Of a DNA stretch of 64,000 bases, positions 24,591 through 43,653 are shown in pieces (within the stretch, counting starts at the first letter, position 1; every line of letters begins with the position of its first letter). The DNA is from Lepidodermella squamata. Lineage: Eukaryota; Animalia; Gastrotricha. The DNA lies in NCBI GenBank assembly GCA_047495785.1, contig JBLDXI010000004.1:1054001-1118000 (forward strand), written 5' to 3'. Position numbers and translations under genes: made by a program. The notes below the pieces were generated by a model. It did no database searches. It was given only the letters and a program-made list of their open reading frames with translations, and was not told where the DNA came from.

Positions 24591-24594
24591 ACTT

Positions 24595-25470
24595 TCATAA
24601 TTTCTCTGCAAGCGACAGGAATTTAAAATTTTCTCTTTAAGCGACAGAGATGTTTCATTTTCTCTCCAAGCGACCAGGAATGTAAAATTGTCCCTTCAAG
24701 CGGCAGAAATTTCAAAATCGTCTCTTCAAGCGACAGAATTTCAAAATCGTCTCTTCAAGCGACAGAAATGTTTCATTTTCTCTCCAAGCGACAGGAATTT
24801 AAAATTGTCCCTTCAAGCGACAGAATTTCAAAATTTCTCTTCAAGCGACAGAATGTTCAAAATTTCTCTGCAAGCGACAGGAATTTTAGAATCGTCTCTT
24901 CAAGCGACAGAATTTCATAATTTCTCTTCAAGCGACAGAACTTTCATAATTTCTCTGCAAGCGACAGGAATTTAAAATTTTCTCTTTAAGCGACAGAGAT
25001 GTTTCATTTTCTCTCCAAGCGACCAGGAATTTAAAATTGTCCCTTCAAGCGGCAGAAATTTCAAAATCGTCTCTTCAAGCGACAGAATGTTCATAATTTC
25101 TCTGCAAGCGACAGGAATTTTAGATTCGTCTCTTCAAGCGACAGAATTTCAAAATTTCTCTTCAAGCGACAGAATTTCATAATTTCTCTGCAAGCGACCG
25201 GAATTTTAAAATCGTCTCTTCAAGCGACAGAATTTCAAAATCGTCTCTTCAAGCGACAGAGATGTTTCATTTTCTCTCCAAGTGACAGGAATTCAAAATT
25301 TCTCTTCAAGCGACAGAATGTTCATAATTTCTCTGCAAGCGACAGGAATTTAAAAATGTCTCTTCAAGCGACAGAATTTCATAATTTCTCTTCAAGCGAC
25401 AGAACTTTCATAATTTCTCTGCAAGCGACAGGTATTTAAAATTTTCTCTTTAAGCGACAGGAATTTAAAA
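24595..25470 (+). repeat. Satellite array, right part (continuation of 2360-7113)
   Basis: Same CAAGCGACAG units in the same orientation. Confidence 0.97.
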
Positions 25471-25658: not shown

Positions 25659-26782
25659 GTGCGTCGCCCTATAAATCCCATCGATCTGAACAAAATTTCA
25701 GCCATGAGTAATAGTCAGAGCTATAATAATATTTTAGTATTCCCTAGGTTAAAATCAGTAGAATTCGATTTCATCAATGCTTCTATCGATAGTTTCAACA
25801 AAGAATGTGTTTACAAGTGGGAGCAATCAATGATTGGCGCTGTGGACATAATTAAAAAAATGTAAATATTCTATCGTCGTTCGATAATGTATTTCTCTTA
25901 TGGGAAGTTTTTTTAGATTGGAAAGATGCGAGTCTCAAACACAGATGCTGGAAATCACTAGTGACGATATTTCTAAACTGAAAGAATTCCTGAATTCTGC
26001 GAGTCAACTACCAGTCTTGAGAATACCTCCCGCTCAAATGGAGCCCGCCCGTGATATGTCGAAGAAAAGGAAACTGGATGACGACATCAATCCTGCCAAT
26101 GTAATTAAAGTAAGGCAAGCGTCATTTCAAGTCTCATCACCCCTAAAATAATTTTCAATAGGATTCTACCGGAATCCATCATCCTATCGGTACAAACGAT
26201 GAGCTTCTGGCTTTCCTAGTAAAAATGACCACCGACTTCGAAATCAATTATCCGGATCGGCATAGCTCTAATTCGAAAAGCATTAAGGATAAAACCTCTA
26301 CTTTTGATTCCCTTATGCACCGCGCTCATAATTACTGCGAAGCTTTTAAAAAATGTGGCTCTCAAAAACTTCAAAAAGCTTTTCACCTCGGGGAATGTCT
26401 GCACTGCCTGAGACCTGTATACAAGCAAAAATTTAATTCGGGAAAAGGTTATGTCAAGTATTTACAAGAAAGTCTAAAAGTTAGTGACAAATGGCTCTAC
26501 AAAATCATGGCTCTGTATGATTCATTTAAAGCATTTCCCAACATGATGTACATAAACATTAGCATAACTGCTATGATTGATCTTCGCGAGCGTCTTTCCA
26601 AGTTACTTCACTGGAATGAGCAGTTCAAGCGATTCTATCGAGATCTCTCTGAGAAAGTCGAGACCTATGTCGGCGAGAACTTCGATAACGAATCTAACGA
26701 CCAAACCGACGAAAGCGAGTCTAATTCGTCCGCTGAACCTGGAACGAGCAGCAATTCCATGGAATATGAAGGGACGCGCTAA
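25659..26782 (+). CDS. Maverick accessory gene, three exons, putative nuclear DNA-binding protein
   Basis: GT-AG introns 25862-25916 and 26110-26161 join ORFs 25659, 25900 and 26225 in frame; KKRK NLS; acidic tail. Start codon uncertain. Confidence 0.7.
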
Positions 26783-26929
26783 AGTTGAATGCAAACGATG
26801 TTGTTGTATGTGTTATTGTTGGAATTGTTTTAAATGATGAAAGGAAGTCAATAAAATCTTATTTCATTTTTATCATCGTTATCAATTCATTTGTAAACTG
26901 TTGGCTGAAGCAACTGTTCTGTTGAAACG

Positions 26930-27136: not shown

Positions 27137-27169
27137 TGTTACCTAATCCTGATAGGCTTGTATCTTTAA

Positions 27170-30100
27170 CTAAAAGAGGGAATCGCTACTTCTCATCAGC
27201 TGCATGAAATCAATCATGAAATGGCCGTGCGCGAAAGTGTTGATGCCATCGTCACTGACCCATCGCTTATCATCATAAGGACACAAGGCAACCTTGGAAC
27301 TCTGCATCGTAACTAAATTATGGGAGAATGATCGAATCTGATTGAAATTTATATTGACTACTTTCTTGTTCTTCACGCAATCCCTGTAATGGTCGAATGT
27401 CAGCTTCGACTTCACGCCATGCCGCCTAACTCCCTTTGCCTTTTTTATTTCATCTTTTTCTGAGTACAAAATTGCATAGACCTTGGATCGTGCGCCGGCG
27501 AATTCTCGTATTACACGTCCCTTTGCTTCGTCTTTAAATACGCCGTTAGTTTTACAGTTGATAGTTGAGAATAGGAAGTGATCTTTAGGATAATCCGAGA
27601 AATCGAATAGGCTTTCGATGTGTTTCATGTCTGTGTAAACGTCTTCAGTTGTGATATGGTAGCACAACGAATCTGTGTCTGTGAAGAGAAGCTTAGCTTT
27701 GTCGCCGTACTTTCGTTTGATGACATTGTAGTGAAAGTCGTACATATGCACCTTGGACAAATCCAAAATGGCTGCTCCAACGATAATTGGTCGATCATAA
27801 AAGATGTCAGTTTTTGCCATTTCCACGCTGAACAGCTCATCACTTATCTTCTTAGCGTCCTTGAATGTTGGTTTGTTTACGAGTTTCTGAAGCTTCTTAG
27901 GGCAAGTAACCAGTTTTAAGTCAATGCGATTCCGTACGTTCTCACAAGTCTTCCCGAAAATGACGTTATTCATCAGTTTGAAAAACCCCTTCTCAAATTC
28001 ATTGCTAGCCTCTTTTCGCTTTCGAGTATTGAATGCGATATAGGGCTCGGCCCAATTGCTCTGTTTGAACTTCAAAGCTCGGTGCACCTTTTTCAGAACT
28101 AGACCATTATCAAGAGCTTGCTGTAGCGCGCGATAGTGCATGACGTAATGTTTCTTGTCCTTCAAATTTTGTGTTAGCTTTTTCACTTTTGCCGGCCTGT
28201 TAAGTCCTAATTGCTTATGCAGATCTTGCATGTGGGGGCTCGGTTCGCAAAGAATATGCTCTGGACAAAACGGATAGTCATTATGTGAGTCATGAAGCCT
28301 TGCAGGATAGTCGATATCAACCTCCAGCATGTACCCGAAATCGTCTTTGTCCCCAAGTGACTTCACGAAATCTTTGGTGATTGTTTCAGGACCAATCCAT
28401 TCGAAGTCTTTCTGCGGTAACCACTGGGTCATCGCGAAAGAATAAAGCGCGTTGGCGTCCCAATACATTATAAACGATTTTGGAGCATTTGCGTCATAGT
28501 CTGTCATACCTTCGTTATTCGCCTTCGCGTACCTTCCAGGAATAACAGCTATACCGCCTCTTATGCCTTTTTCAACGAATTCAAGCATCTCCTTATTATC
28601 AAAGAGATCCAGTTCAACACGTGTGTATTTCAACATCGCATCCCAACTTAACCCAGGTGCGCCTAAATAATGCGCTGGGTCCAGATCGTAATAGCTTTTG
28701 CAGGTGTCTCGAAAACTGTCAAAACAATCTGCTAACAAGAAAACATCTGTTTTCAAATACAGGTCGTGGTAGTCTTTCAGAGTTTTGCAATTCAGTTTTG
28801 ACCAAACGGCTTGTGCGTGTTCATAATCCTCGTCAGATATAGAAGTTACTTCAATTTTGCTATCATCAAGCGAACAAGAATTTAGTCTACTTGAGAAATG
28901 TGACTTATTCGGTAGCTGAGTTTCATTCAGTTTGTCGAGGCTATCTATATAATCGTACGGATACACTCCCTTACGAAGTAGCAGGGATCTTTGTTCAGTT
29001 GTGAACTTAGAAAGCTGTTCATCAAAATGAGCGAATCTCTTTCCCGATTTTTTCAGATTACTGACTATCTGGTCCAGGCTTTCACTCATAAATTGAAACG
29101 AATCGATAAATCGCAGTTTGCCGATACTAAAACTTAGATACTTTTCCGAGGAATTAGCTATGACGTCAATCGTCAACAGGTTTGGTCTTTTCTTTTTGTC
29201 TTCTTTTTTGAAATTTGCAATCTTTTCTCCATTGATTTCGTTTACTACTTTTCCGGCTGCCTGCATTATCAAGTGCGAATCGTACCCACTCAGGTTATGA
29301 AAAACAACCGGGATGAAAGAATGCTTGAGATTCAAATTCAGATTGCAGGCATTATGAGCAGCTCCCCTGAAACGGCCTGTAAGATGGTCATGATCGCGGA
29401 CTTTATCGTCGCCCAAGGTGCTTCGACAAACATGGCAGTGCTGTGCATTATCATAACTTTGTTGCTCTTGTTGAGATAACAACATGTTTTTATTGGATTC
29501 CTGAATAAATTTCCTCAAACTATACTGCTTTTTAATCAAGAATCTCAGAAACTGCTCCGCACAATTCACCCCTTCAAACTGCCAATACTTCGAACGGATC
29601 TCAGGTACCTTACTAGCCAGTAAACATCCGAATGAATTCGCAACATGCTTCTGATAAATCAAGGACCTACCCTTTTGAACATCGGAATTCGTTAGCGTAG
29701 TCTCCGCATCACAATAGAAAACGAACGGTACTTCAAGCTGCTTGTAGTAATTTTTGAAAATAACTCGGCTACCTTTCGGAGGAAACTTCACTATGACGTT
29801 GCCATTTATTATGCAATTATGCTCTTTCAGCTTTATTTCGCTGTCAAATCCAGTCAGACACTGTAAACACCAATGCTTTTTGTGCTGATCAGAACTAGGT
29901 AGCTACCGGCTCAAATTTTTTATCCAGCTGAAGTGTGCTTTCACCTCAGCACCGTCTCTGAGAGTAGTTCGCAGAAGGTTAACTTCTTGGGCGTAAGGTT
30001 TCTTCGACGCGTAGTATGAAATAAGGCGATGACAGCCATCTTTTTCTTTGTATTCAATCACGTTGATCTTAATCCTATTCTGATCTTCAAGATTTGAAAT

Positions 30101-31213
30101 ATCGTTCAACGAAATGGGGAACTTGATGCCATCATGTTTCAGTTCATTTTTAAATAACTTGTACTTGGATGTTTCCTGTGCATTTTTATCTACTGGATGC
30201 AAGCAAGCCAGCATGCTCCAGATAATGCATTCATCGTCGGTGTTTTTAACATTTATAACGGCCTTTTTATCTGCAATAAACTTCGGTGTTGGAATGTAAG
30301 ATCCTGTCCCTAACGGGCAGTAGCTGAAAGCACAAACACGGAGTCGCGAAATGTTTTGGAAGATCCAGCCGGAGCCGCGCTGCTCGTAATTCTCAATGGC
30401 ACCACCAAGTTGAGAAAAGTGTTGGTCTACAACGCTCCCTATGTCATCATATTTCCTGATAACTGGGGCAGCCTTCACAGCGGAAGACCATTTATGTTCT
30501 GATTTACTATTGTTATCTTTTTTCCAATTCAAATCAGCGTTAAACACTATTTTGATGTTATCATTTTGCTCTAATTTTTTTTGCACGTAATTAACAACTG
30601 ATTCTCTAACCTTTTCGGTGAATAGATGGAAGTCACTTCCTGAATTATGAGCTTCAATGTCTAACCTATAGAGGATATTCTTGAAATGCTCGGGATTTTT
30701 CTGCTCATTAAATACCATATAATTGTTATCCTCGAGAGAGTTAATGCGTTCGATATAAATGTAGCCTTCGGCAATCAACTTGTTGTACGTTGGTCCACCC
30801 CATTTGATGAATTTCAAAGTCTTAGGATGTATGACATGATTTTCTTCCTGCCCTCTGAACACCATTTCACCAGCAGAATTCAAGAAATAGCCATCTTTAC
30901 GCAGCCTCTGATAGTCCTGGCTGCCACTTTTTATCTTGCTCACACCTCGTTTAATAAGCTGATTATTCGCTTCGTCATAGAAAAACTCCTTCTCAAGTTT
31001 TTTGAAATTGGACGAACCGATAGAAATATATTTTTGCGTGATAGGATTTAATACTGTTTTCCGTTGGGTTCTTTCGTAAGGCATCCCACCCTTCGTCCAA
31101 CGGTTATCTTTAAATTCAAACCCCTTCCTCAATAGCGTATTGTATGCTCGGCCACCAACCTTAATACGACGACCGTTAGGTCCCATTACATTGGTTTCAC
31201 TGTTGTCGGTCAT
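27170..31213 (-). CDS. polB: Protein-primed family B DNA polymerase (pPolB), ~1347 codons with one in-frame TAG at 29903-29905
   Basis: ORFs 29903..31213 and 27170..29791 share a frame. Motifs YCDAE, HNLSGYD, FIDSF, LRKGVYPYDY, YWDANALY, KLMNNVIFGK, FTDTDS; EndoVII-like CHVC..VRDHDH...HNACN insert. Confidence 0.95.
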
Positions 31214-31304
31214 GATTGTATATATTATACTAAGAAAATAATCTTTAAGTAATTTTCCGCAATTGAAGAAAATCTTATATAGTTTTTTCTAATGATAATA
31301 TATA

Positions 31305-31613
31305 ATGACTACAAACACGATTAAGCAAAGAGGTCGCCCGAAGAAATATCTGACTGAAGAAGAACGCGAGACAGGCTATCGTGATCAGCATCGTATAGCT
31401 TGCAAAAACTACTGGAAAAAAACTATGGAAGTTGTTAGAGCAAGTCGTGCAAACCCTGTACAGGGAAAATGTCATGAAGTGACTTCACAAAAGGAAGGAG
31501 CGATCACAAGCGACAGAATGTGTGAGCCTAAGCCTGAAAAACTTACGACGAAGGATATAGAGGAAATTATAAATCAAATGTTGGCAACAAAACTGCAAAA
31601 ATTGCTCTCATAG
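31305..31613 (+). CDS. Small basic protein with RGRP (AT-hook-like) motif
   Basis: KQRGRPKKYLTEEER; TCTA motif upstream. Confidence 0.7.
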   Translation: MTTNTIKQRGRPKKYLTEEERETGYRDQHRIACKNYWKKTMEVVRASRANPVQGKCHEVTSQKEGAITSDRMCEPKPEKLTTKDIEEIINQMLATKLQKLLS

Positions 31614-31638
31614 GCCTAGCTGTGCGGTACTGATTGAA

Positions 31639-33060
31639 CTAATCCAACAAGTTATCAGCGGGCTCCCAAGTCGGCTTATCATATCCTGCCCATTTGACGT
31701 GAACCATTTCTTTACCATTAACTTTCTTTCTTCTCAAAATCTTTTCAACCCGGTAAAGGTTTTCTTGCTGTTGGGAGGATTTCTGCAATTCCTGTTCGTA
31801 AAAGCTACCTACTACTGGTTCACCATCTAGAGCCTCGATTTTATAGGTTCTAGGAATGGTTTCGTTAACCTTGACGACTTTAAGAAGCTCTTCACTCCAG
31901 GAAGGGTGGAAACCTTTTTCAAAGGTCTCTTTCAGTCGGCTGATCCTCACAATGTCACCAACAGCGAATTTGGGTTTAAGTAACTTATTTTCCTCTGATT
32001 CCGCGTACAAATTGTTGTGAACGACGTCTCTATTCTTTGGATCTATTGCCTGAGTTGGCGTCATTCGAATCGATCTGTGCTTAGTAAGGTTGTACTCTCT
32101 AACAAGGTCATCTAATATTGCAACCCAATTACGTGAGTTGTTAAGTGTAAAGCGTTTCCACATTCTAGTTTTAAGAGTCCTGTTAAACCTCTCGATCATA
32201 GGGTTATGAAAATTTTCATAGGTCGAGTACCGATTCACCTTATTTGCTTTCAACCATTTAGTGAAGATTGAATTATAAAATTCACTGCCCTCATCGACCC
32301 AAATATTTTTAGGCTGTCGTCGGCTTGTCTTAATAACTGATGAGAAGGCATGGAAAACACTTTTTGCGTCTTTTGATTTCAGGGGGACGACCCATGCATA
32401 TCTGCTGAAGCAGCATATCACGGTCAAAATGTACTTATAGCCATTATTGTCATCGGTCAAGTCGTTCATGAAGACAATGTCCATGCCCCATGTGTCGTCA
32501 ACGTTATGCACATAAACGCGACGTCTTGGAAACCGCTTTCTTGCGGGTTTATGAAGCTCCTCAGCTAATGTTTCAAACTTCATTTTGCTAACTGTTTCTG
32601 ATCGCGGCGGCTCTTGTTCTGTCTTTCGCTTCGGAAATTGTTGCGAGTAGCTAACAGGTTTCCTATCTCGAAGAGCCATGCCTTTCCCCTGCAGGTGGTC
32701 AGCGATTCCACCTTCAACGAACGTTTTGTAGACAAATGCTGCCATAGCCCTCTCGTAACCACTTTTCGATAGATCGCTAGCAATCCCGAGTGCCTTGTCT
32801 GCAAGAATTCTATCGCTAACGGTGCGTCGGTCTCTGTCTTTGTAAAAGTGATAGGCAGCGTCATGTTCTCTGGCTGCCTCGTCCAACTTATTTATACCTC
32901 TGTAGCCCTGGCTCATTCTTTGAACAAAATGTGTTCCTGGGCCAGCGTAACTATATGACTGCTTATTGTTATAAGACCCTCCAGGAACGAATTCTCCTTG
33001 AACGGGATAACTCGGTAAATGAAATTCCACCGGCAAGCTGTTAATTATTTTGTCAAACAT
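31639..33060 (-). CDS. int: Parvovirus-type phospholipase A2 fused to retroviral-like (rve) integrase and chromodomain
   Basis: YAGPGT...NKLDEAAREHDAAY (PLA2); WGMD...WVDEGSEF...IERFNRTLK (DDE); YRVEKIL...VKWAGYDKPTWEP (chromodomain). Confidence 0.95.
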   Translation of the reverse strand: MFDKIINSLPVEFHLPSYPVQGEFVPGGSYNNKQSYSYAGPGTHFVQRMSQGYRGINKLDEAAREHDAAYHFYKDRDRRTVSDRILADKALGIASDLSKSGYERAMAAFVYKTFVEGGIADHLQGKGMALRDRKPVSYSQQFPKRKTEQEPPRSETVSKMKFETLAEELHKPARKRFPRRRVYVHNVDDTWGMDIVFMNDLTDDNNGYKYILTVICCFSRYAWVVPLKSKDAKSVFHAFSSVIKTSRRQPKNIWVDEGSEFYNSIFTKWLKANKVNRYSTYENFHNPMIERFNRTLKTRMWKRFTLNNSRNWVAILDDLVREYNLTKHRSIRMTPTQAIDPKNRDVVHNNLYAESEENKLLKPKFAVGDIVRISRLKETFEKGFHPSWSEELLKVVKVNETIPRTYKIEALDGEPVVGSFYEQELQKSSQQQENLYRVEKILRRKKVNGKEMVHVKWAGYDKPTWEPADNLLD

Positions 33061-33096
33061 TATTCATTAGGACTTGAAATTCTAAATAAAGAGCAA

Positions 33097-33789
33097 ATGA
33101 TCAATTGGGACAGCATCGTTCAATCACAACAACAGGAGTACAAAAATGGATCGCCCTTTTTCCCTCAGCATCCTTCCCGATGTCTTATTATTGGACCGTC
33201 CGGGACCGGAAAGACTTCAGATCTGTTGACAATACTGCATAACTCCTTTTTTCACAAGATCTACTTATATAGTAAAACTCTTGATGAGGACAAGTACGAG
33301 TACCTGATTGGGCTTCAGAAACAGAAGGAAGACATTCTTTCCAAGCAAGGAATTTCAGTAAGCCTTGTTCACTCTTCCAATGACATTTCTGAAGTCATGC
33401 CTCTTGAGAGCCTAGATAAAAGTTACCAGCATGCTTATATTTTCGACGATATTTGCATGGAGCAAAAGAAGCTGCAAGAAACACATATCGGTGCAATGTG
33501 GATAAGATGTCGAAAGTACAACGCGTCAGCCTTTTATCTTTCGCAGTCATATTTTAAGATCCCAAAGACAATTAGGGATAATGCCGATTTTGTTGTGCTG
33601 AAGAAGCTGGCAGACAACAGGGAGCTGAGCATAATTCATCGAATATACGCCCCCTCAATTAAGACAACTGAATTTATTGCCAAGTACAATGAAGCCGTTA
33701 GCCTTCCTCATGGTTCGTTTATCATTGACGGTCAAAGCAAGCCACAGTGTCTACGAATTAGAGCTAATTACGCTTCAATCTTCGCCTAA
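33097..33789 (+). CDS. A32/FtsK-like DNA packaging ATPase
   Basis: Walker A GPSGTGKT, Walker B YIFDD, LSQSYFKIPKTIRDN. Confidence 0.93.
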   Translation: MINWDSIVQSQQQEYKNGSPFFPQHPSRCLIIGPSGTGKTSDLLTILHNSFFHKIYLYSKTLDEDKYEYLIGLQKQKEDILSKQGISVSLVHSSNDISEVMPLESLDKSYQHAYIFDDICMEQKKLQETHIGAMWIRCRKYNASAFYLSQSYFKIPKTIRDNADFVVLKKLADNRELSIIHRIYAPSIKTTEFIAKYNEAVSLPHGSFIIDGQSKPQCLRIRANYASIFA

Positions 33790-33967
33790 TCATTTTTAAC
33801 TATTAAAAATTAGTTTAAATTATCTATCAAACAGTTTGAATTATCTTGGCTTTACTGATTATCTCCAGTATAAGATGAGTTCAACTGAGCGTTCAATGGG
33901 CGATCATTAGGCGTTCAAGAAGCGATCATGTGGCTAACGAGGAGCGATTTATTCTAGCCAGAGTGAT

Positions 33968-35011
33968 ATGCCGCTACGCGAATTAACAACTGATGAACAA
34001 ATTCGAATTCTTGAAGATTTAGATAAGCAGGAGAAGATGTACGACCGACACTTGGCCATGGTTAAAGGTGATGTATATGCTTTAAAGTATAAGCATAGTG
34101 TAAACGTTGAACCCGATCCCCTTACAGCTTTGCAAGAGACTTACAGGCAGATGCCAACTGTGGAGGCAATAAGATCCGTTGCCAAGGAGCTCAAACAAAC
34201 AGCAAAGAGAAGCTTACCAACAGCTAATCACCCGCATCACCTAGAAGCGGTATTACCAAAGGCGGAGCCGACAACTGAAGAGGCGAAGGAATCAGTGGAG
34301 AACATAGTTTTGAAGAGACATAACTTCCCCACAGCTAAAGAAATTGAAGAGGCTGGGGCTGACCCCGCGCATATTATTGTATCTCTTTCGCACTATAATA
34401 AAAATGTTTTGGGCTCCCAACTAGCTCAGCTCACTAAAAAAGGATACAAAGACTCTCCACAGTATCAATCGATTCAAAATGATATACAGATTTTGAAAAA
34501 CTTCAAGAACTCGTTGCTTGAGACATTTGAGAATCAAAGGGTGCTACTTGAGAAAACTGGTACAGGTATATCCAACAATTATTTGAAGATTGGTAGGTTG
34601 TACGCCAGAAAAGACGACATAAAGCGAGGGGTTTTACGGATTCGCAAGAAGAATAAAGGAAAAGTGCAAGGTTTAGCCGATATAGACATAAGTGATGGTG
34701 TCAAACAATTGCTCTTGAAAAGGTACAATCCGAAGGTGAACTTTTCTAAGCAAGACTATGATCAATACCAAAGAATTTGTGAACAGACTGGATATCGACC
34801 AAAACCCCATTCTAAAATCTGGAACAGAATTTACGTGACTGATGTTGTTGATGCCCAAAAGAGGCTCGTAAACGCGATTGGTGAAATCAGAGCGGGAAAC
34901 AATAACGCTGAAATATATAACGAAGTTGTGAGTATTGCAGATTTTCTTTTGAAGAACAATAGATTGACCAAAGCTGAATACGAAAATCTAATAACACTGG
35001 TAAATGGGTGA
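33968..35011 (+). CDS. Maverick hypothetical protein, probably structural
   Basis: 347-aa ORF in the capsid module with C-terminal GEIRAGNNN motif; TCTA upstream. Confidence 0.75.
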   Translation: MPLRELTTDEQIRILEDLDKQEKMYDRHLAMVKGDVYALKYKHSVNVEPDPLTALQETYRQMPTVEAIRSVAKELKQTAKRSLPTANHPHHLEAVLPKAEPTTEEAKESVENIVLKRHNFPTAKEIEEAGADPAHIIVSLSHYNKNVLGSQLAQLTKKGYKDSPQYQSIQNDIQILKNFKNSLLETFENQRVLLEKTGTGISNNYLKIGRLYARKDDIKRGVLRIRKKNKGKVQGLADIDISDGVKQLLLKRYNPKVNFSKQDYDQYQRICEQTGYRPKPHSKIWNRIYVTDVVDAQKRLVNAIGEIRAGNNNAEIYNEVVSIADFLLKNNRLTKAEYENLITLVNG

Positions 35012-35744
35012 TCCAATATTTCTGCCTTTGGAATATTACTGCAATAACAGGTCGGACGCCAGCAACGTCATCGATCGTTACCTAAATGATAAGATCGATT
35101 TCACAAAACGCAGCATCGCCGTTTCATATATTCACTTTTACGATGTTTTTTATAATGTATCGCAGGCTTCAGGTAATAGTAAGCTCAGATATAAAGATCC
35201 AGAGGATGCAACTTTTGAAATACGATTTCCTGATGGAACCTTCACTTTTCGTGATTATAACAATTATATTCACTTTGTTATGAAAGGAAACGGCCATTTC
35301 AAGACCATCGACGGCTCAGAAGTTTACGGCATAAGCTTATCTGTCAATACTGTTCTGAATAAACTGAGCTTTCGAATTCAACCAGGTTACGCTCTTCTGA
35401 TCGAGCATGATGCCACGTCTGAATTTCTAGGTGTAGACAAAGGCGAATTCCGATCAGATTTTAATGGGCAGCATATTCCTAACATCACGATGTCAAATGA
35501 CTCAATGTTTGTTCACTGTAACGTCGTCAATAATAGCCTAGTCCCGGAGGTTAGTGATGTCATCTTCACCTGTCCGATTAACAAAAATTTCGGTCAACAC
35601 GTTAACATTGTTCCAAATGAGAAACGTTACTTGTCCTGTACGAATGCTAATACACAAAACATAAAAATAACGCTCACCACCCAGGCTGGTGCACCACTGG
35701 AGATGACTGAAAGAAAATGGGGTATTGGTCTAGATATTCGCTAG
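35004..35744 (+). CDS. Minor capsid (penton-like) protein
   Basis: YNVS..GN...FPDGTF...FVHCNVV pattern, beta-rich, located upstream of the MCP. Confidence 0.8.
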   Translation: MGDPIFLPLEYYCNNRSDASNVIDRYLNDKIDFTKRSIAVSYIHFYDVFYNVSQASGNSKLRYKDPEDATFEIRFPDGTFTFRDYNNYIHFVMKGNGHFKTIDGSEVYGISLSVNTVLNKLSFRIQPGYALLIEHDATSEFLGVDKGEFRSDFNGQHIPNITMSNDSMFVHCNVVNNSLVPEVSDVIFTCPINKNFGQHVNIVPNEKRYLSCTNANTQNIKITLTTQAGAPLEMTERKWGIGLDIR

Positions 35745-35766
35745 CTTTTTCTAGTTACTTTGTATA

Positions 35767-36066
35767 ATGAAAAATCGCAGAACAAAAGCATATGTCGTAG
35801 GACGCGGTTACGTAGACATCGCAAAAAATATGCTCGACAAATTCACTGGTCTCTTACCGGTTCAGACTTTGGCCAAATCAGCTCTATCAAAGGCAGCGGA
35901 AGTTGCCGGTGACAAAATAGGTGCCTATGCCGCAAATAAACTTGCAGACAAAGTGATGCCGGCAAAGCCAGCTGAGCGCTCTATTCAGGCTATTGAGGAG
36001 CTTGAGAAGAAAATCAAAAGAGACATCGATAATTACACCGGAACAGGCTTTAAGCTGATACGCTAA
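35767..36066 (+). CDS. Small basic core/structural protein with adenain-type cleavage sites
   Basis: VVGRG and YTGTG motifs; Ala/Lys-rich amphipathic segment. Confidence 0.7.
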   Translation: MKNRRTKAYVVGRGYVDIAKNMLDKFTGLLPVQTLAKSALSKAAEVAGDKIGAYAANKLADKVMPAKPAERSIQAIEELEKKIKRDIDNYTGTGFKLIR

Positions 36067-36085
36067 ATATCTAATGCCTATTTAA

Positions 36086-37459
36086 ATGCTTCAATCCGAA
36101 ATAGTGAACTGTCTCTTTGAGAGCCCGACCATAGATGATCGGCAGTTCGAAAGGAAAAGCTGGGCCGAGGTTTGTGCAACAAGTTTTATACAGGATCAGC
36201 CCTCTCAGCCTTCTCGCCTTATCTTTTCTACATATAACTTACGTGAGTTGTTTTTATTGCCGAGGGAAGCCTATATCCAATTGACAGTTGAGTTCCGTCG
36301 AAACGATAGTCAGGCTTTCAAAGCAACCGACAAGTACGCAATTAGGAACCATGTTATATCCATGTTTGAAACAGTTGAAGTGCAAGTAGGTGATAATGAT
36401 AACCAGGTAGAGCAAACACGTTATAACGAACACTGGAGCTCGTTGCTGGGCGTTATTCACTGGTCTGATGACTATGCGCGAAGTCTTGGGGAAGAATCTC
36501 TTTTCGCCAGAGACTACCCAGCCCATGTCAATTATGAAATGACTCCTGAAGTTACAGCAGAAAGTTTCGATCCTGCGAAGAACAGCTGCAACGAGGGACT
36601 ACTCTTGAGATCCTTGTATGTTAAAGATCATAAGATGGTTGTCACACTTTACTTAAGGGACATTCCATTCTTCCAAAATTATTTTGGGATGTGGACCAAG
36701 GCGAGATTTCGTGTGATATTAACACCAAATTACACCAAACCCATAGTCGCAGCCATAGGGAAAAACGATGATTTGCCGGAAGGGATGCATTTCCAGATTT
36801 CATCAGCTTATATGTTTATTCCGGAAGTCACATTGATGCCTGAAACTAGAGCACGCATTTTGAAAGCTTTCAATACGGGTCTCACGAAAGTTTACAAATG
36901 GCAATCGCTAGAATGCTTTCAGAGCCCCCAGTTTGCTGTGAATAGTTCTTCAGTACAATGGACAATCACATCTGAGATGAAAAAACCAAGCTGGCTGTAT
37001 ATTGTATTCTTGCAAGACTTCTCAGACGCAGAGTATCAAACTAAACTGACACAAATTTACACTCAATGGAATATATTCAGCTACTCTCTCATGATAAACA
37101 ATAAGGAGGCGTTTGCCGAGGCCAACATGAACTTTTCACGCTTCAACGCTCACCGGCTCTATAACTATATTAAGGAAAACATGAACCATTTCAACGATCG
37201 CGAAAGTACGAACACTGGTAGTCAGCTTAGTTACCTTGATTTTTGTCGATTTTACCGTTTCCTGGCATTCAATCTGGAAAGTGTAGATGCCGGTGCTATA
37301 TATAATTCACGCGGTGACCAAAGCGTGAGTGTCACATTTAAAGCTAGAATCAGTCCTGTCGATAAGCCATTAGTTATGTTTTGTTTCATTTTTAGGGAAA
37401 AAGAAATAGGCTTCAACTACAAAGACGACAAGCTCGAGATAAGCCTTAACATGCTGTGA
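36086..37459 (+). CDS. Major capsid protein (double jelly roll)
   Basis: 457 aa, beta-rich; size and position typical; KPSWLYIVF and FLAFNLE motifs resemble Polinton MCPs. Confidence 0.85.
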   Translation: MLQSEIVNCLFESPTIDDRQFERKSWAEVCATSFIQDQPSQPSRLIFSTYNLRELFLLPREAYIQLTVEFRRNDSQAFKATDKYAIRNHVISMFETVEVQVGDNDNQVEQTRYNEHWSSLLGVIHWSDDYARSLGEESLFARDYPAHVNYEMTPEVTAESFDPAKNSCNEGLLLRSLYVKDHKMVVTLYLRDIPFFQNYFGMWTKARFRVILTPNYTKPIVAAIGKNDDLPEGMHFQISSAYMFIPEVTLMPETRARILKAFNTGLTKVYKWQSLECFQSPQFAVNSSSVQWTITSEMKKPSWLYIVFLQDFSDAEYQTKLTQIYTQWNIFSYSLMINNKEAFAEANMNFSRFNAHRLYNYIKENMNHFNDRESTNTGSQLSYLDFCRFYRFLAFNLESVDAGAIYNSRGDQSVSVTFKARISPVDKPLVMFCFIFREKEIGFNYKDDKLEISLNML

Positions 37460-37480
37460 ATTTTCTAACTTAGAATAATA

Positions 37481-38059
37481 ATGACTAAATACATTCCATT
37501 CGACATTAAACTAACAGAGACCCAGAGAAGAGCATTTAAAAAACCAGGCCAAGTTGTATTGCGTTTCACAATTGATCAGCTTCTTGCAGATCCAAATGGT
37601 TCCAAGTTGTTGTTGACGCAAAGGCAGATAGATAAAGTAATGAAGAGCAAACAAAGGATGAAAGGGCTTGATATCAAACTGAGCAAAACTCAGCTCCGGA
37701 AGAATCAGTCTGGCGGGTTCCTGTTACCGGCGCTTGCCACAGCTTCTAAATTTATAGCCCCTGTAGCCGTTGCAGCGCTGAGCGGCCTTGCCAGTTCCCT
37801 CGCCAGTACAGCAGCTGACAAGATCGTAGGCAAAGGCGTGTCGCTGACAATACCAAAAGAGGATTTAGATGAACTGCAAAAGGCGGTTTCGCTTCTGGAG
37901 TCCCGACAAATTGTGCCTGCTGGCAGTAGCAAGGCAATTAAAAGCCATATAGAGCAACAGGGTGGAGCTTTTATATTGCCGCTTGTATCAAGCTTACTGG
38001 GTGCATTTCTTCCGACCTTATTCGGAAAAGGGGTTTACATGCCGTGGGAAAAAAACTGA
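37481..38059 (+). CDS. Core/membrane-active precursor with two GG-F-L-P hydrophobic repeats (adenovirus pX-like)
   Basis: QSGGFLLPALA...IVGKG and QQGGAFILPLVSSLLG...LFGKG. Confidence 0.7.
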   Translation: MTKYIPFDIKLTETQRRAFKKPGQVVLRFTIDQLLADPNGSKLLLTQRQIDKVMKSKQRMKGLDIKLSKTQLRKNQSGGFLLPALATASKFIAPVAVAALSGLASSLASTAADKIVGKGVSLTIPKEDLDELQKAVSLLESRQIVPAGSSKAIKSHIEQQGGAFILPLVSSLLGAFLPTLFGKGVYMPWEKN

Positions 38060-38502
38060 AAAATAGCGGGTTTTATCCTCTATCCAATCTTGAGATAACC
38101 GAAGCTTTAAAGAGGCTTCTCGGAAACGACTTCAAGGGCTGTTACGCTCGGGACGACCTTCCTGCTACACTTCAACGAGGATATTACGTCATTAACCTGG
38201 ACGATAAAGTTAACCGCGGAAGTCATTGGGTCTCAATGGCTGTGAAGTCGACTGAAATAATCTACTTCGATAGCTTCGGGTTTATATGCCCTAATGAGAT
38301 CATTAAGCGTCGCGGCAAACGAGTAATTTGGTATTCTACACATGATATACAATATCCTGGCTCTGTTGCATGTGGCTTCTATGCCATTTACTTTCTAAGA
38401 GAATTAGGTAAAGGTAGGGATAAGTTAGCTATTTTGCTAGACTTCAATAACACCGGGTCACTGCACAATGATGACTTACTGAAAAATCTATTGTTAAGCT
38501 AG
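38044..38502 (+). CDS. Adenain-like cysteine protease; no ATG before the catalytic His
   Basis: INLD...GSHWV...YFDSFG...IQYPGSVACGFY catalytic H/D/Q/C. Confidence 0.9.
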   Translation: MGKKLKNSGFYPLSNLEITEALKRLLGNDFKGCYARDDLPATLQRGYYVINLDDKVNRGSHWVSMAVKSTEIIYFDSFGFICPNEIIKRRGKRVIWYSTHDIQYPGSVACGFYAIYFLRELGKGRDKLAILLDFNNTGSLHNDDLLKNLLLS

Positions 38503-38504
38503 AT

Positions 38505-38684
38505 ATGTATTGCCTGCATTGTAGGAAAAACACTAAATCAGTGAATGAGCAGCAATTAGCCACTCGTAATAACCGAGCTCTCATGACAGGATCTTGTACA
38601 CTCTGCGGTATGACAAAGTATAAATTCATAAGAATGTTAAAGAGAAACGCCATCGTAGATAAAAAGGATGCAAGCGTCCGTTGA
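38505..38684 (+). CDS. 59-aa zinc-ribbon protein (DUF5679-like); not in the ORF track
   Basis: MYCLHCRKNT...TRNNR....GSCTLCGMTKYKF; TCTA 14 nt upstream. Confidence 0.8.
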   Translation: MYCLHCRKNTKSVNEQQLATRNNRALMTGSCTLCGMTKYKFIRMLKRNAIVDKKDASVR

Positions 38685-39174
38685 AGATGAATTGAAGAGA
38701 CTGATGGATAATTTTGAGAATTCTAAATCAGTGAGAAAGACATTTTCTACCATGCCTTACGTGTATTGCGATGCGTGTGCCACAGAACTTTTGCTTGACG
38801 AAAGGGCGAATTTCAACGTATGCCCAAACTGCGGTTTATGTTATCCATACTGTGAGCACTCCCCGCCATTCAAATTAGTACCTTACAAACGAAAATGGCA
38901 TTTAATGACTGTAATTAAAAAGCGCGGTATAGAAATGCTACCTCCTCAACTTGAGAGGCTGATGTCGAGCTTTATCAAGTTTGACTCGGGCTATGCAGAA
39001 CTCTTTCCCGATCAAAATATGATGCACCTTGACTTTGTTATCAAAGCTCTGGCTCAGGAACATGGATACGACCTTGTGGCACAGAGCGTACACGTGAAAT
39101 CGGTTAACGATAAGACGCTGAGGCAATGGCGGAATAAGTATAATCTAGTCATCGCTCATTATGAGATCGAATGA
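38668..39174 (+). CDS. VLTF3-like (poxvirus/NCLDV late transcription factor 3) protein
   Basis: CDAC...VCPNCG ribbon followed by PYKRKWHL, then F..F...Y...FP..NMMHLDFVIK.L, the layout of the VLTF3 family. Confidence 0.65.
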   Translation: MQASVEDELKRLMDNFENSKSVRKTFSTMPYVYCDACATELLLDERANFNVCPNCGLCYPYCEHSPPFKLVPYKRKWHLMTVIKKRGIEMLPPQLERLMSSFIKFDSGYAELFPDQNMMHLDFVIKALAQEHGYDLVAQSVHVKSVNDKTLRQWRNKYNLVIAHYEIE

Positions 39175-39820
39175 AATATTCATTCCAAGTGAATGGTTTG
39201 AAAATGCACGACAGGCAGCAATTTATTTGAGGGCAGACGGCAGTACTCCATTCGCGGCAAACCTAAACGCGAATAGCTACTGCATCGAAAATTTGGGCGG
39301 CCCCGTTTTCGACAACGATGCTGTTAGTAAAAATTGGGTTGAGCGAAGTTGTTTAATGATTTAATCCGATCAGACTGTTGACTTTAAAAATGCTAGGCTC
39401 ACGAACATCCATCCACCAATAAATCCAAACGATGGCGCGATTCGGGCTTCCAGATTGATATGCTCTGGCAAGGTTTCTCTTGCGCGCGAGAATAAGCTAA
39501 GTTTTGATAACATGATTTCCGGAATGCCTGAAGTAAGCGATAGCTTAGTGTTTCGGGCAGACGTAACAGCCAGAGTGGAAATGTGGTACCGGCTGGACGA
39601 CAACAGAGCCACATCCTTCACCCTTGATTTCTTCAAAAACAACGGTAACTTGTTCTCGAAATACTTCAACTATAACAATGTTAATTTGGAGAGCAGCAAT
39701 GAATACTGTTCCTTTATAGAGCAATTCCGATTGAATGATAGCTTAACGGTTATTGCAGCAGCTGACGAAAGCATACAACTGTCATACATTTTGATTATTT
39801 CTAACCTAAAGAATACGTGA
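39161..39820 (+). pseudogene. Fibre/spike-like protein with in-frame TAA at 39362-39364
   Basis: YLRADGSTPFAANLNANSYCIENLGGPVFDNDAVSKNWVE shaft repeat, and a second copy after the stop (DFKNARLTNIHPPINPNDGA); ORFs 39161 and 39455 share a frame. Confidence 0.7.
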
Positions 39821-41404
39821 TACATATATTCAGAATGAATGACAACCAGCTAAAAACAGTAGAAAGTATTTACCCCACTGCTCCCAGACTACAGATGTCT
39901 TCTACTCAAGAGTTCAGGCTTGCTGAGCTCCGGCGCCTAAATGATGTTTTCAACACAGAAATATCGAAAAGAAAGAAGCTTTATAATAGATATTCCCGTT
40001 TTTCGTCAATTTGCAAAGCTACTATTCATGGAATAACGGGCGGCACAACATCGCTTGCGATTGGTGGAATCGCACTACTGTCACTTGGCCTCCCAACCGG
40101 TATCATGTTGGAGATTACTGCAGCTTCGGGCGGCATGGTCATACTAGTTCTCAACCTGCTTGACTTAAAGTTCGAAAGGAAAGCCGAAAAACATGAAAGA
40201 ATCGCCACTCTTGCCATGTCGAAAGCCAACTCAATAGGCGACATGATCAAAACAGCCCTGGAAGATAACCACATCAGTGACACTGAGTATCAGGTTATTA
40301 TGAGAGAAAACGAGAAATTCCATGATATGAAAAAGTTGCTCCAGAAGAGTTTAAATTGTGATCGCACGCAAATATTTCTTGAGGAACTCAAAAAGGCTCA
40401 ATTCCGGGCCCCCCTTAGTTTCGTGCGGCCCCCAACATTAATTGCGCAATCAGAAGGTAAAAGTGGACTTGTGCGCGAGCGAAGTCGAAGTTTTTAATAG
40501 TTTTAGGGCCGCGCGCGCTAATGTCAAAAGGCTACTTTTTATAATGTAGGCGGTTTTTATACCAAAATGTAGGTCGGACGATTCTCTATCGAGTCAATAT
40601 GATGTTCTCGCGTGAAAAAATTAATAGGAATCAGTTTTACGTGCACACCAAATTTCTGCAACGAAGTGCGCACGCTCTCACCCTGCGCGCGAAATCTAAG
40701 GTGCACGTAAAACTTTTTCCCATCAATTTTTTCACGCGAGAACACCATATTCAATCGATAGAGAATTGTCTGAATTATTTTTTGGTATAAAAACCGACGC
40801 GATATTTGAAAGTAATCCTTTAACATCTTTGCGCGCGGTTTTAAATTCGTTAAAAATCATGACTTAGCCAGCGCGCTTTAGTCGCGCGAGGTTAAATTTT
40901 CAGAGTCATGATTTTTAACGAATTTAAAACCGCGCGCAAAGATGTTAAAGGATTACTTTCAAATATCGCGTCGGTTTTTATACCAAAAAATAATTCAGAC
41001 AATTCTCTATCGATTGAATATGGTGTTCTCGCGTGAAAAAATTGATGGGAAAAAGTTTTACGTGCACCTTAGATTTCGCGCGCAGGGTGAGAGCGTGCGC
41101 ACTTCGCCCCTCGAAACTTAGGATGCACGTAAAACTTTTTCCCATAAATTTTTTCACACGAGAAGACTATATCTATTCGATAGAGAATTGTCTGACCTTT
41201 ATTTTGTTATAAAAACCGCTCGAAAAGTCAAAACTAGCCTTTTGACATAGGCGCGAGCGGCTGTGAAATTTTCGAAATTTTCGACTTAGCGCTCGCGCAC
41301 AAGTCCATTTTTACCCTCTGGTTGCGCAATTAATGTTGGGGCCGCACGAAACTAAGGGGGGCCCGGAATTGAGCCTCAAAAAGCATGGTGTGAACGTCCC
41401 TTGA
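39817..41404 (+). CDS. Maverick two-TM coiled-coil protein (possibly the adintovirus GasderminX-type gene), C-terminus interrupted by a MITE
   Basis: FRL..L...K.EKHE.I..LA.SK.NSI....TALEDNHISDTEY; removing the MITE gives ...EELKKHGVNVP*. Confidence 0.75.
40396..41374. mobile_element. Foldback MITE with 9-bp TSD (Mutator-type)
   Basis: GCTCAATTCCGGGCCCCCC...GGGGGGCCCGGAATTGAGC; TSD CTCAAAAAG; almost entirely palindromic. Confidence 0.9.
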
Positions 41405-41406
41405 GC

Positions 41407-42390
41407 TAGCGAAAAGGCGAGTAAAATATCATACGTTTCTTTGGTGCTCTAACTGCTTTAGCATGATTGCCTTTGATTTTGGAAGGCTTTTTAATTCTAT
41501 CCCTATTCAGGGCCGGATTAACATTCGGGTGGCCCCTGGGCACTTTCTGTTTGGCGGCCGTTCTCTTCATATGTTTCCACTAAATATGTTTTCATACCTG
41601 AAACCATGATCAAAGTCAATTTTCTCAATTTCCTGATTCATTGAACAATAATTCCTTCTAAAATTTAGTTTTGCTTTGGTACTTTGTTGCTACGAGCCAC
41701 CTAGTATTCTACATCATAGCTGGAGTTGGCGTTAATAAGTGCGTTAATAACCGCAAATTGGAACATTGTCCCATTACCACGAGCGAAGCAAGAAATTTTC
41801 CAAGAATATTCCTTAAAATCGTTTTTCTTATGCAGAAAATCCTTGCTTTCCCGTTTCATTCTGATAGAGTAAACTCGGAAAACATTGAGGCAAAGAGGAT
41901 TGAACTCTCATTCATTTTTCATTCAAACCCCTAAATGAGTTTACGATTGTTCAAAATGAATTGCATAGGGGTAGTACTGATAAATAAAGTGAACAAAAGT
42001 TGACGAACTAGCGAGCGAAGCGAGCAAAATTTTAGCAAAATAAAAGAAAATAGGTTGATCCGGATGCTTGGAAAGCCTCTCAATTGCAAAGCATAACGAC
42101 CTAATAAAGGCCCAACAATATTCCGGAAATGTTTAGTAAAAACAAACATTTCACCACTTTCTGGCGGCCCCTTTTGACTGGCGGCCCCTGGGCACGTGCC
42201 CTGTGTGCATATGCGTTAATCCGGCCCTGTCCCTATTCACAAAATACCCTAGCAACGCGGCGATTACACTCAATGCAACAAAAATGCGTTGAAGCTGGGC
42301 GTTCGTCCTTAAGCAGTCGATCTGAAGTTCTCTAACAAGCACCTTAATATATGAGATTATTTCTTCTTGGGCACTCGAGTAAGTATTCAT
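41407..42390 (-). pseudogene. Small single-TM Maverick protein interrupted by the hAT MITE
   Basis: MNTYSS...IFVALSVIAALLGYFVNRD continues as RIKKPSKIKG...SPFR* once the MITE is removed. Confidence 0.6.
41508..42229. mobile_element. hAT-type MITE with 8-bp TSD
   Basis: CAGGGCCGGATTAAC...GTTAATCCGGCCCTG; TSD TCCCTATT. Confidence 0.9.
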
Positions 42391-42408: not shown

Positions 42409-42744
42409 TTATTTTTCTCGTCGCGCCCTCATTTCAGCTATGAATTTCTCTATATCTGACTTCCTTTTCTGTCGCCGTTCAGACAGCTCAGCTTTGCGCC
42501 TCTGGCTCTGTAACTTACGGTCGTTATCTTCTTTTTCCCTTGCAGTCAGCAAATCGCTGTATTTCTGTTCAATGACAGCCTTCTCGTTCTCCAAAGTCTT
42601 AATACGGGTATTTGAGGACTGTCTCTTGAGCGAGGAATACTGATCGCTGATAATCTCAACTTCCTGCTTCAGTTTGTCAATATCTTGATCCTTCTCGTCG
42701 ACGATTTCATCGACCTCTGTGTATGAAAGAAATCCTATCTCCAT
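42409..42744 (-). CDS. Coiled-coil hypothetical protein
   Basis: 111 aa, charged heptad pattern, tightly packed with neighbours. Confidence 0.65.
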   Translation of the reverse strand: MEIGFLSYTEVDEIVDEKDQDIDKLKQEVEIISDQYSSLKRQSSNTRIKTLENEKAVIEQKYSDLLTAREKEDNDRKLQSQRRKAELSERRQKRKSDIEKFIAEMRARREK

Positions 42745-42751
42745 GATTATA

Positions 42752-43009
42752 TTATTTACCGAGAAATCTTCTTCTTAGCAGGTAAGCTTCCTTGCCGCCG
42801 ACATGAGAGACATCCTTTGGAATCAGACTAACGTTGATGCCACCGCCCTTCAGCGATGAGACGCGTTGTTGTTTGCCTAAATGATAGTAAATCGTGCCTC
42901 TGCTGAGTCCCACTTCAGCTGCGATTTTATCTACTGTCTTAGAGCTATTCTGATATTCATGGATTGCTTGGCTGATTTTGTCGGGATTTATTACCTTGCG
43001 ACGAAGCAT
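42752..43009 (-). CDS. Small helix-turn-helix DNA-binding protein
   Basis: TVDKIAAEVGLSRGTIYYHL HTH signature. Confidence 0.75.
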   Translation of the reverse strand: MLRRKVINPDKISQAIHEYQNSSKTVDKIAAEVGLSRGTIYYHLGKQQRVSSLKGGGINVSLIPKDVSHVGGKEAYLLRRRFLGK

Positions 43010-43653
43010 CTTATATTTATTTGAGAAATTAAAATATTTCGATATTTCGATGTTTCATTATTCAAATGTTTGAACGTTCAGTCATATATATGTTGAAATT
43101 AACAGCGTTGTCGATTTCCTTGTCAAGTGTTTGAACATTTCAAAATTAAAACATTAGAAGGTTCGAATAATTGCTTTATCGAGAAGTTTAGCTTTGAACA
43201 TCGCTGGATCAGTAAATAATTATTCTGAATCAGATGAAGGCATGTGAAGTTCTAGGCAAGAACAGATACTTGACAACAGTGGCAGCAGTAAGTTCCGATT
43301 TCAATTCTTCGTCGCTAACAATTTCTCCACAGACGAGACATACCGCCTCATTGCAAAAGAGGTATATCGAAGCATTCTTCAGTACTTTGAGATTCAGTTA
43401 TCAGGATGCTCTCTTGAGTAGTCTCGTCAGGTCCTCGCATCAGTTAGAGAAGACGGATTCCTCTCCAAGAGCAAAAAATGCAACCAATTGCAAGAGTAAG
43501 CGTGCTTAGGGTGATTACGAATGCAGCGCACAAACGAGCTGACGTTAAATAATTTATCCTCTGCCCTCGATCGAAATCGGTCGATATTATCCCGGCAACG
43601 AGAGAAAACATGTAGCTGAGTCAGCTGGCAGTTTTCTATATACGAAAGTTTTT

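Follow-up and report, generated by a model that had tools for sequence, protein, structure and literature searches.

A two-part, TCTA-type promoter-like signal before the genes of a Maverick element from the gastrotrich Lepidodermella squamata, possibly read by a co-infecting large DNA virus

The window analyzed here comprises 64,000 nucleotides (nt) of the genome of Lepidodermella squamata (Gastrotricha; GenBank assembly GCA_047495785.1, contig JBLDXI010000004.1, positions 1,054,001 to 1,118,000 of the forward strand) and harbors, from window position 27164 to about 43045, one copy of a multicopy Maverick/Polinton family. The original prediction, made from the letters alone, had taken the element for a Maverick, and this was borne out, as a protein-primed family B DNA polymerase (pPolB), an rve integrase with a chromodomain, an A32 packaging ATPase, a double jelly-roll capsid protein, and a C5 protease were all found (Table 1). 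The polymerase and integrase are encoded on the minus strand, and the ATPase, capsid, protease, DUF5679, and VLTF3-like genes on the plus strand. TCTA tetramers had been reported shortly before ten genes. All ten are present at the positions given in Table 1, and the gaps between tetramer and proposed start (13, 12, 11, 13, 13, 12, 13, 14, 13, and 13 nt, in order) are exact. Nine of the ten starts are ATG codons, but the tenth, at 39817, is GTG; it was rejected, and the open reading frame (ORF) was taken to begin at its first in-frame ATG (39835), 31 nt behind the tetramer at 39800. The AT-rich context holds on the 5' side, where the four positions preceding each tetramer hold nothing but A or T (40 of 40 bases), but the 3' side is mixed at 33953 and 39144. 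Judged from sequence, this promoter-like signal is a known motif in a new setting, to which a sharper two-part definition can be given.

Table 1. Genes and promoter-like signals of the Maverick copy (window coordinates; W, A or T)
Feature	Position	Strand	Evidence or remark
pPolB with endonuclease VII domain	27170..31213	-	ORFs, PF02945; in-frame stop near 29903
Two-part promoter of pPolB (W4-TCTT, 9 nt, TATA)	31219..31239	-	1 of 3 exact pattern matches in 64 kb
Two-part promoter with TCTA 31288, before ORF 31305-31613 (small basic protein, weak AT-hook)	31284..31304	+	
Phospholipase A2-like domain, rve integrase, and chromodomain	31639..33060	-	Pfam; variant TCAA 13 nt upstream
TCTA 33081 and A32 packaging ATPase from 33097	33077..33789	+	PF04665, 2e-9
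TCTA 33953 and ORF 33968 (347 residues, no family)	33949..35011	+	
TCTA 34987 (within end of preceding ORF) and likely minor capsid protein 35004	34983..35744	+	
Two-part promoter with TCTA 35750 and small basic ORF 35767	35746..36066	+	
TCTA 36070 and double jelly-roll major capsid protein 36086	36066..37459	+	13 homologues
TCTA 37464 and ORF 37481, ending in slippery A-run	37460..38059	+	
Adenovirus-type C5 protease, -1 frame, without own start or motif	38047..38502	+	PF00770, 3e-4, just under cut-off
TCTA 38487 (within protease end) and DUF5679 zinc-ribbon ORF 38505	38483..38684	+	PF18930, 1e-13
VLTF3-like late transcription factor, overlapping DUF5679 ORF, no upstream motif	38668..39174	+	
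TCTA 39144 and gene 39161-39820, in-frame stop at 39362-39364	39140..39820	+	
TCTA 39800 and ORF 39835, end interrupted by foldback insertion	39796..40497	+	Homologue in locus L006
Two small ORFs: 42744 and helix-turn-helix (HTH) protein 43009	42409..43030	-	Variant TCTC at gaps 16 and 13

TCTA was found at a gap of 11 to 14 nt before 9 of the 15 chosen gene starts, compared with 5 of the 523 other ATG codons in the element. The proposed positional enrichment over shuffled controls was confirmed: when the 15 upstream 60-mers were shuffled with dinucleotides preserved and any 4-mer in any 4-nt window was accepted, none of 5,000 shuffles reached nine genes and two reached eight. Among 5,000 random sets of 15 ATG codons from the element, the best had six with TCTA. 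On the basis of these shuffles and random sets, a chance origin of the positions was rejected. As the 15 starts had been picked with knowledge of the motif, a blind ORF caller was added, and TCTA preceded 7 of the 22 element ORFs that it returned versus 14 of 519 other ATGs (P = 5e-6). The ATPase start is independent of the motif, since all 16 close homologues begin at the methionine of 33097, and 11 of 13 capsid homologues begin at or within 1-2 residues of the methionine at 36086 (one of the others is extended and one partial). On both strands together the element contains 26 copies of W4-TCTA, 10 of which are the reported sites. Four of the tetramers lie within the end of the preceding reading frame; none overlaps the stop codon of the preceding gene, and an origin as a by-product of stop codons was rejected on that ground.

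The signal is larger than TCTA and consists of four A/T bases, TCT, and one further base, often with TATA nine bases on. In the window, TATA stands at this offset at 4 of 14 sites, including those of pPolB and ORF 42744. The pattern W4-TCT-N10-TATA has three exact matches in the 64 kb, all at gene starts, although this count alone is not beyond chance, as it was reached in 9 of 100 shuffles. The claim that TCTA is absent before the pPolB, integrase, VLTF3-like, and protease genes holds for the exact tetramer but needs qualification, as pPolB is preceded by TTTT-TCTT, 9 nt, and TATA, and the integrase by TCAA at a gap of 13. The other minus-strand genes have variants too, TCTC at a gap of 13 (HTH gene) or 16 (ORF 42744). 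With a one-part matrix, pPolB, the integrase, and the HTH gene fall in the top 2-4% of background ATGs and ORF 42744 at 19%; among AT-matched ATGs, the pPolB score was reached by 10% of 19 and the integrase score by 16% of 38, which is not significant. The exact tetramer precedes 10 of 11 plus-strand genes, a block of mostly structural genes, versus none of the four minus-strand genes (P = 0.004), and exact TCTA and its variants may represent two strengths or two classes of one promoter. Thus the proposed dedicated late regulon is supported insofar as exact TCTA splits by gene block, but the full two-part signal also precedes pPolB here and in three of six distinct pPolB relatives. In a separate observation, the integrase and ATPase genes share a 36-nt divergent promoter (33061-33096) in which a near-palindrome gives TCTA on one strand and TCAA on the other; a shared box resembling it is present in locus L081.

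To place the signal among relatives (designated by L numbers), 80 loci from IMG/VR and 6 metagenome loci were collected with an ATPase profile, and 44 were left at less than 80% ATPase identity. Thirty-two of these form one clade, which contains all 16 loci with a virophage-type capsid gene. Across the 484 ORFs of this virophage clade, W4-TCTN occurs 133 times at gaps of 11 to 16, compared with 45 times at gaps of 25 to 48 in the same upstream regions, with any base allowed in the fourth place of the tetramer (T, 44; C, 39; A, 38; G, 12). TATA at offset 9 accompanies 77 of 185 virophage-clade sites, 8 of 14 sites in L001, 5 of 8 in L003, and 3 of 3 in L004. Among Maverick-type loci, the two-part form is carried by L001, L003, L004, and L100 and stands before pPolB in L100, L101, and L106 (L103 is a contig of L001 with a TAT variant and was not counted as distinct). 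L104, which has a canonical Maverick gene set, carries W4-TCTN at gaps of 11 to 20 in eight cases versus none (15 ORFs), with a TAAAA-like sequence in place of TATA as the second part. In L081, a further Maverick-type locus whose ATPase groups with proteins from megabase contigs, TCTA lies 14-20 nt before all five evident starts, the integrase included, and L084 has TCTC at a gap of 19.

By neither capsid type nor ATPase tree does the window element qualify as a virophage. Its ATPase falls outside the 35-row virophage-type clade in a quick tree, and its capsid profile matches only PF21738-type proteins, in 4 of the 86 loci (L002, L003, L004, and L006). Capsid and ATPase form a clade of their own (three cluster representatives under 1e-30; 100% support in a quick tree). 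Homologous families at 55-70% protein identity exist; capsid and single-ATPase searches of IMG/VR and JGI yielded no close relative, and a scan of prokaryotes gave three matches, all unrelated. As side observations, L002 has a near-invariant 19-nt motif (T-run, ATATTGC, TAATATA) before at least eight genes, with the same geometry and another core, and L106/L088 is a contig joining a window-type pPolB and integrase to genes that, from their size and order, look virophage-like.

The same comparisons bear on two other ways of reading the signal. It could act at the RNA level, where it might be an acceptor for splicing or trans-splicing, a branch point, or a signal for translation, given that 3 of the 10 sites read TCTAG, 5 fit CTAAY, and host introns are short (52 and 55 nt). 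However, AG is missing between motif and start at three of the ten sites, and its position varies among the others, for which reason a splice-acceptor role was rejected; moreover, the partner of the motif is TATA at a fixed offset, and the motif is common to virophage-clade contigs. We regard an RNA signal as very unlikely. Alternatively, in an animal with small introns the box might be a compact core promoter of the initiator type that host polymerase II reads without help. Contigs of an RNA-type sequencing run (X4) cover 36990-37876, but an X4 contig crosses the site at 37464, and contigs cannot show starts or levels. The 62 raw ORFs called outside the element, most of which are not true first exons, include none with TCTA at that position, and the same geometry recurs in virophage-clade contigs from unrelated hosts, leaving this reading improbable. 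A role of the motif as TATA box was rejected, since host polymerase II initiates 25-30 nt downstream of such a box, which here would be past the ATG.

The late promoter of Cafeteria roenbergensis virus (CroV) and its virophage mavirus is TCTA flanked by A/T-rich regions (PMC5294985, PMC8547959), and it is found before all mavirus genes (PMC6723459), which weakens the reading of TCTA as the mark of a dedicated late regulon. Type 4 endogenous mavirus-like elements (EMALEs) also carry copies of the motif (PMC8547959, PMC6723459). The window signal shares with CroV, ChlorV, mavirus, and these EMALEs a TCTA with A/T-rich flank shortly before the start codon, and with mavirus and type 4 EMALEs the character of a small integrating virus with pPolB, rve integrase, A32 ATPase, protease, and capsid. 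The predicted match to the CroV/mavirus promoter thus fits the published description, but a link to CroV in particular is too narrow, as the pattern, with its free fourth base, is general in virophage-clade contigs. In contrast to mavirus, the exact tetramer precedes 10 of 15 window genes, variants precede four, and the VLTF3-like ORF has none. The window also differs from CroV and mavirus in a 3' spacer that is not always A/T-rich, in the second part (TATA at offset 9) described here, and in its likely animal host.

By gene content the element resembles group 2 Mavericks or adintoviruses (Polintoviricetes), which likewise combine pPolB, an rve-chromo integrase with phospholipase domain, A32 ATPase, double jelly-roll capsid, and C5 protease; a VLTF3-like gene is known in a subgroup of them (PMC11131425). 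In the portions of the literature covered by the search, no promoter motif was found for this group and no report of the present promoter in animal Mavericks. Late promoters of African swine fever virus (ASFV) combine an upstream element, a TATA initiator, and short leaders (PMC7458399), and those of poxviruses a core, a 5-7 bp spacer, and TAAAT (PMC5294985). Both resemble the window signal in having an upstream A/T-rich element, a short spacer, a TATA or TAAAT initiator beside the ATG, and very short leaders, and two window sites end in TAAATG. Unlike the window element, ASFV and poxviruses encode their own RNA polymerase, and a TCT core is not described for them in the text consulted. The entomopoxvirus-associated polinton-like viruses of Barth et al. 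2024 (PMC11296320) are, like the window element, animal Maverick-clade elements, and are tied to a large DNA virus; the main text mentions no promoter, motif, or transcription, and no shared signal is shown there.

The two plus-strand genes without TCTA have arrangements of their own. At a slippery A-run (38047-38062), the protease reading frame, which is -1 relative to ORF 37481, overlaps the end of that ORF; two contigs of sequencing run X1 span this run of A without interruption, and none of the sequencing runs lists an indel in 37380-38720. A -1 overlap of pX-like ORF and protease at a slippery run is also found in L002 (14370-14392), L003 (2117-2135), L004 (3645-3670), and L006 (11800-11825); the other two of the six related loci examined have an in-frame fusion (L022) and a separate protease start (L001), and L101 has no such overlap. 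On this pattern, the protease is likely made by programmed -1 frameshifting from ORF 37481, which would explain why it has no motif of its own. Seven stretches at gene-block ends or behind the slippery site were folded and gave no significant hairpin (z, 0.5 to -2.2; one under -2). The literature search for a protease frameshift of this type returned, within the text covered, only a preprint predicting other adintovirus frameshifts (penton and hexon-adenain; PMC11071296). Separately, L104 (8000-8050) has a DUF5679-phospholipase ORF followed at a slippery A-run by the integrase in the -1 frame, unlike the window, where phospholipase domain and integrase form one frame. The VLTF3-like ORF has a motif score at background level; as it overlaps the DUF5679 ORF, it likely rides on the TCTA transcript of that gene.

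The repeated signal is very probably a real promoter of some reader, and likely a late promoter of giant-virus type. Our favored explanation, to which the sequence comparisons lead us to give about an even chance, is that a co-infecting large DNA virus would supply the RNA polymerase and late factors that read it. The Maverick would then live as a virophage-like parasite stored in the host genome. Transcription would begin 9-10 nt behind each tetramer and yield a separate mRNA for each gene; the predicted leaders are 0-8 nt long, except that of ORF 39835, at about 20 nt. A -1 frameshift during translation of the ORF 37481 mRNA would give the protease, and the VLTF3-like protein would be translated as the second ORF of the DUF5679 mRNA; as both would come from upstream TCTA mRNAs, neither would need a motif. 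The VLTF3-like factor would be a product of the regulon and at most its amplifier, not its trigger. Starts behind the box are suggested by two ATG codons, at 31292 (out of frame) and 36074 (stop after three codons), that directly follow a tetramer, since a longer mRNA must pass these ATGs.

Published work on several systems is pertinent here. Virophages are held to use the late machinery of their helpers (PMC6723459, PMC8547959, 10.1101/2025.10.09.676808), only EMALEs with the TCTA motif respond to CroV (10.1101/2025.10.09.676808), and a Halocafeteria preprint uses the same argument. Mavpol2-clade elements are present in entomopoxvirus occlusion bodies (PMC11296320). In Amoebidium, 32% of the genes of VLTF3-bearing adintoviruses became active on demethylation, but capsid genes were not among them (PMC11244446), as expected if the host alone cannot read them. 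A number of points weigh on the other side. A TCTA late motif has been described in no giant viruses other than CroV and ChlorV, whose hosts are protists (PMC13196603); coral polintovirus genes, capsid included, are transcribed without a reported helper (PMC11131425); and the element encodes VLTF3-like and HTH genes of its own and has host-type poly(A) hexamers at three block ends (33802, 42396, and 42413), though none at the ends of the integrase gene and ORF 31305. Among relatives, no motif was found in L006, L022, or L085 and little in L087, L088, L102, and L105, and L002 uses a different upstream motif. In addition, the absence of VLTF3 from relatives is a weak test, with a single divergent query, partial contigs, and Pfam coverage of 1 of 42 whole records.

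The original prediction had left open whether the reader is the element's own VLTF3-like factor or the machinery of a large virus. For ORF 38668, 27 of 30 Atlas matches are Pox_VLTF3 (best, 0.95) and a weak A2L zinc ribbon is visible; no sequence homologue was found, the single-sequence fold was poor (pLDDT, 47), and fold and PDB searches were uninformative. An element autonomous in the nucleus would use this protein together with HTH 43009 and DUF5679 to bind W4-TCTA and recruit host polymerase II to the TATA-like start, the promoter having been inherited from ancestors shared with virophages. That all three proteins are encoded, that integration is multicopy, and that poly(A)-type hexamers close three blocks all fit this view, as does the restriction of exact TCTA to the plus-strand block, since the HTH gene and pPolB, with their variants, could be expressed first. 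Coral polintoviruses, moreover, show a gene-class-specific expression pattern (PMC11131425). However, the VLTF3-like gene itself sits behind a TCTA promoter, and capsid genes stayed silent in the demethylated VLTF3-bearing adintoviruses (PMC11244446). The suggested co-occurrence of motif and VLTF3 was not seen in motif-bearing L001, L100, and L104, which have no VLTF3-like ORF in the stretches examined (partial contigs, hence a weak test); phmmer found none in 109 loci, nor did Pfam in 14 ORFs of L104. Poxvirus VLTF3, for its part, works with the viral polymerase. Because ORF 38668 has no motif of its own and lies behind a TCTA gene, and because motif-bearing relatives have no VLTF3-like ORF in the stretches examined, the own-VLTF3 branch appears weaker than the helper branch, and we consider full autonomy rather unlikely.

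These results bear on how animal Mavericks are expressed and on why none of their virions has been observed (10.64898/2026.06.19.733378), and the defined 21-nt promoter makes the question testable. We put forward a broader proposal tentatively, holding it to be less probable than not: a large share of animal Mavericks may be helper-dependent proviruses with an ancient two-part late promoter (W4-TCTN, nine bases, TATA) common to virophages, whose capsid genes would remain silent until a large DNA virus that infects animals brings its polymerase, which would be why no particle has been seen; the motif would be a search key for helpers, and the protease would be dosed by a conserved -1 frameshift. 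If so, a Maverick would need the transcription machinery of a large helper virus to switch on its particle genes, virophage-like parasitism, and possibly defense, would extend to animals, and virophages and Mavericks would be tied by a regulatory signal, beyond their genes.

The multicopy state of the family was deduced from X1 contigs, whose depth is 680-1350 across 27302-39981 versus 114-137 on the flanks. The present copy has decayed: its left end is cut at 27164, a loose end where other copies continue, and it has two in-frame stops and two insertions missing from other copies (40387-41374 and 41500-42229). No inverted repeat of at least 40 nt brackets it. Sister copies, visible only as differences in the contigs of sequencing runs, diverge by a few percent. 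These features would suit a relic, that is, a formerly helper-read promoter that now has no reader and is kept through recent arrival or coding overlap. Nevertheless, all ten tetramers are perfect, the four sites inside reading frames still keep W4-TCTA, and homologous families exist at the protein identities given above, so that a relic seems very unlikely. Conservation among sister copies has no power here, as no change was found in the 16 motif bases of two sites (40 of 42 differences listed) where about 0.5 was expected. Of the two insertions, the first is a foldback insertion of about 990 bp resembling a miniature inverted-repeat transposable element (MITE), with a 203-nt perfect inverted arm and very high copy in X1, and the second is a hAT-like MITE with short terminal repeats and an 8-bp target duplication.

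Further support for the gene assignments in Table 1 came from protein comparisons. The pPolB is 39-45% identical over about 760 residues to polymerases of seven viral loci, and family B motifs are visible, though Pfam DNA_pol_B_2 did not match it. The integrase gene scored 4e-12 with PF00665 and 5e-7 with PF00385. PF21738 was recognized on 2 of the 13 capsid homologues. ORF 35004 has weak tblastn matches in many viral loci and no Pfam match; it is likely the minor capsid (penton) protein, a name based on its size and place. ORF 37481 is likely a pX-like core protein, since its L104 homologue weakly matches Adeno_PX and there is also an Atlas lead (0.85). ORF 39161 is the front part of a longer gene split by one in-frame stop. 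Several ORFs in 31639-38059 have G-K/R/T-G motifs near their ends or between domains, which we take, by analogy with adenoviruses, to be likely cleavage sites of the C5 protease.

Outside the element, the flanking sequence encodes C-type lectin and EGF domains, and a spliced host gene with 52- and 55-nt GT-AG introns (25861-26810) adjoins the cut end of the Maverick; judged by these features alone, an animal host is likely. Satellite-like tandem arrays at 2600-7100 and 24600-25470 lie beside a pair of 1383-nt inverted repeats (7108-8490 and 23214-24596), and a pogo-like DDE transposase is encoded at 19670-21208.

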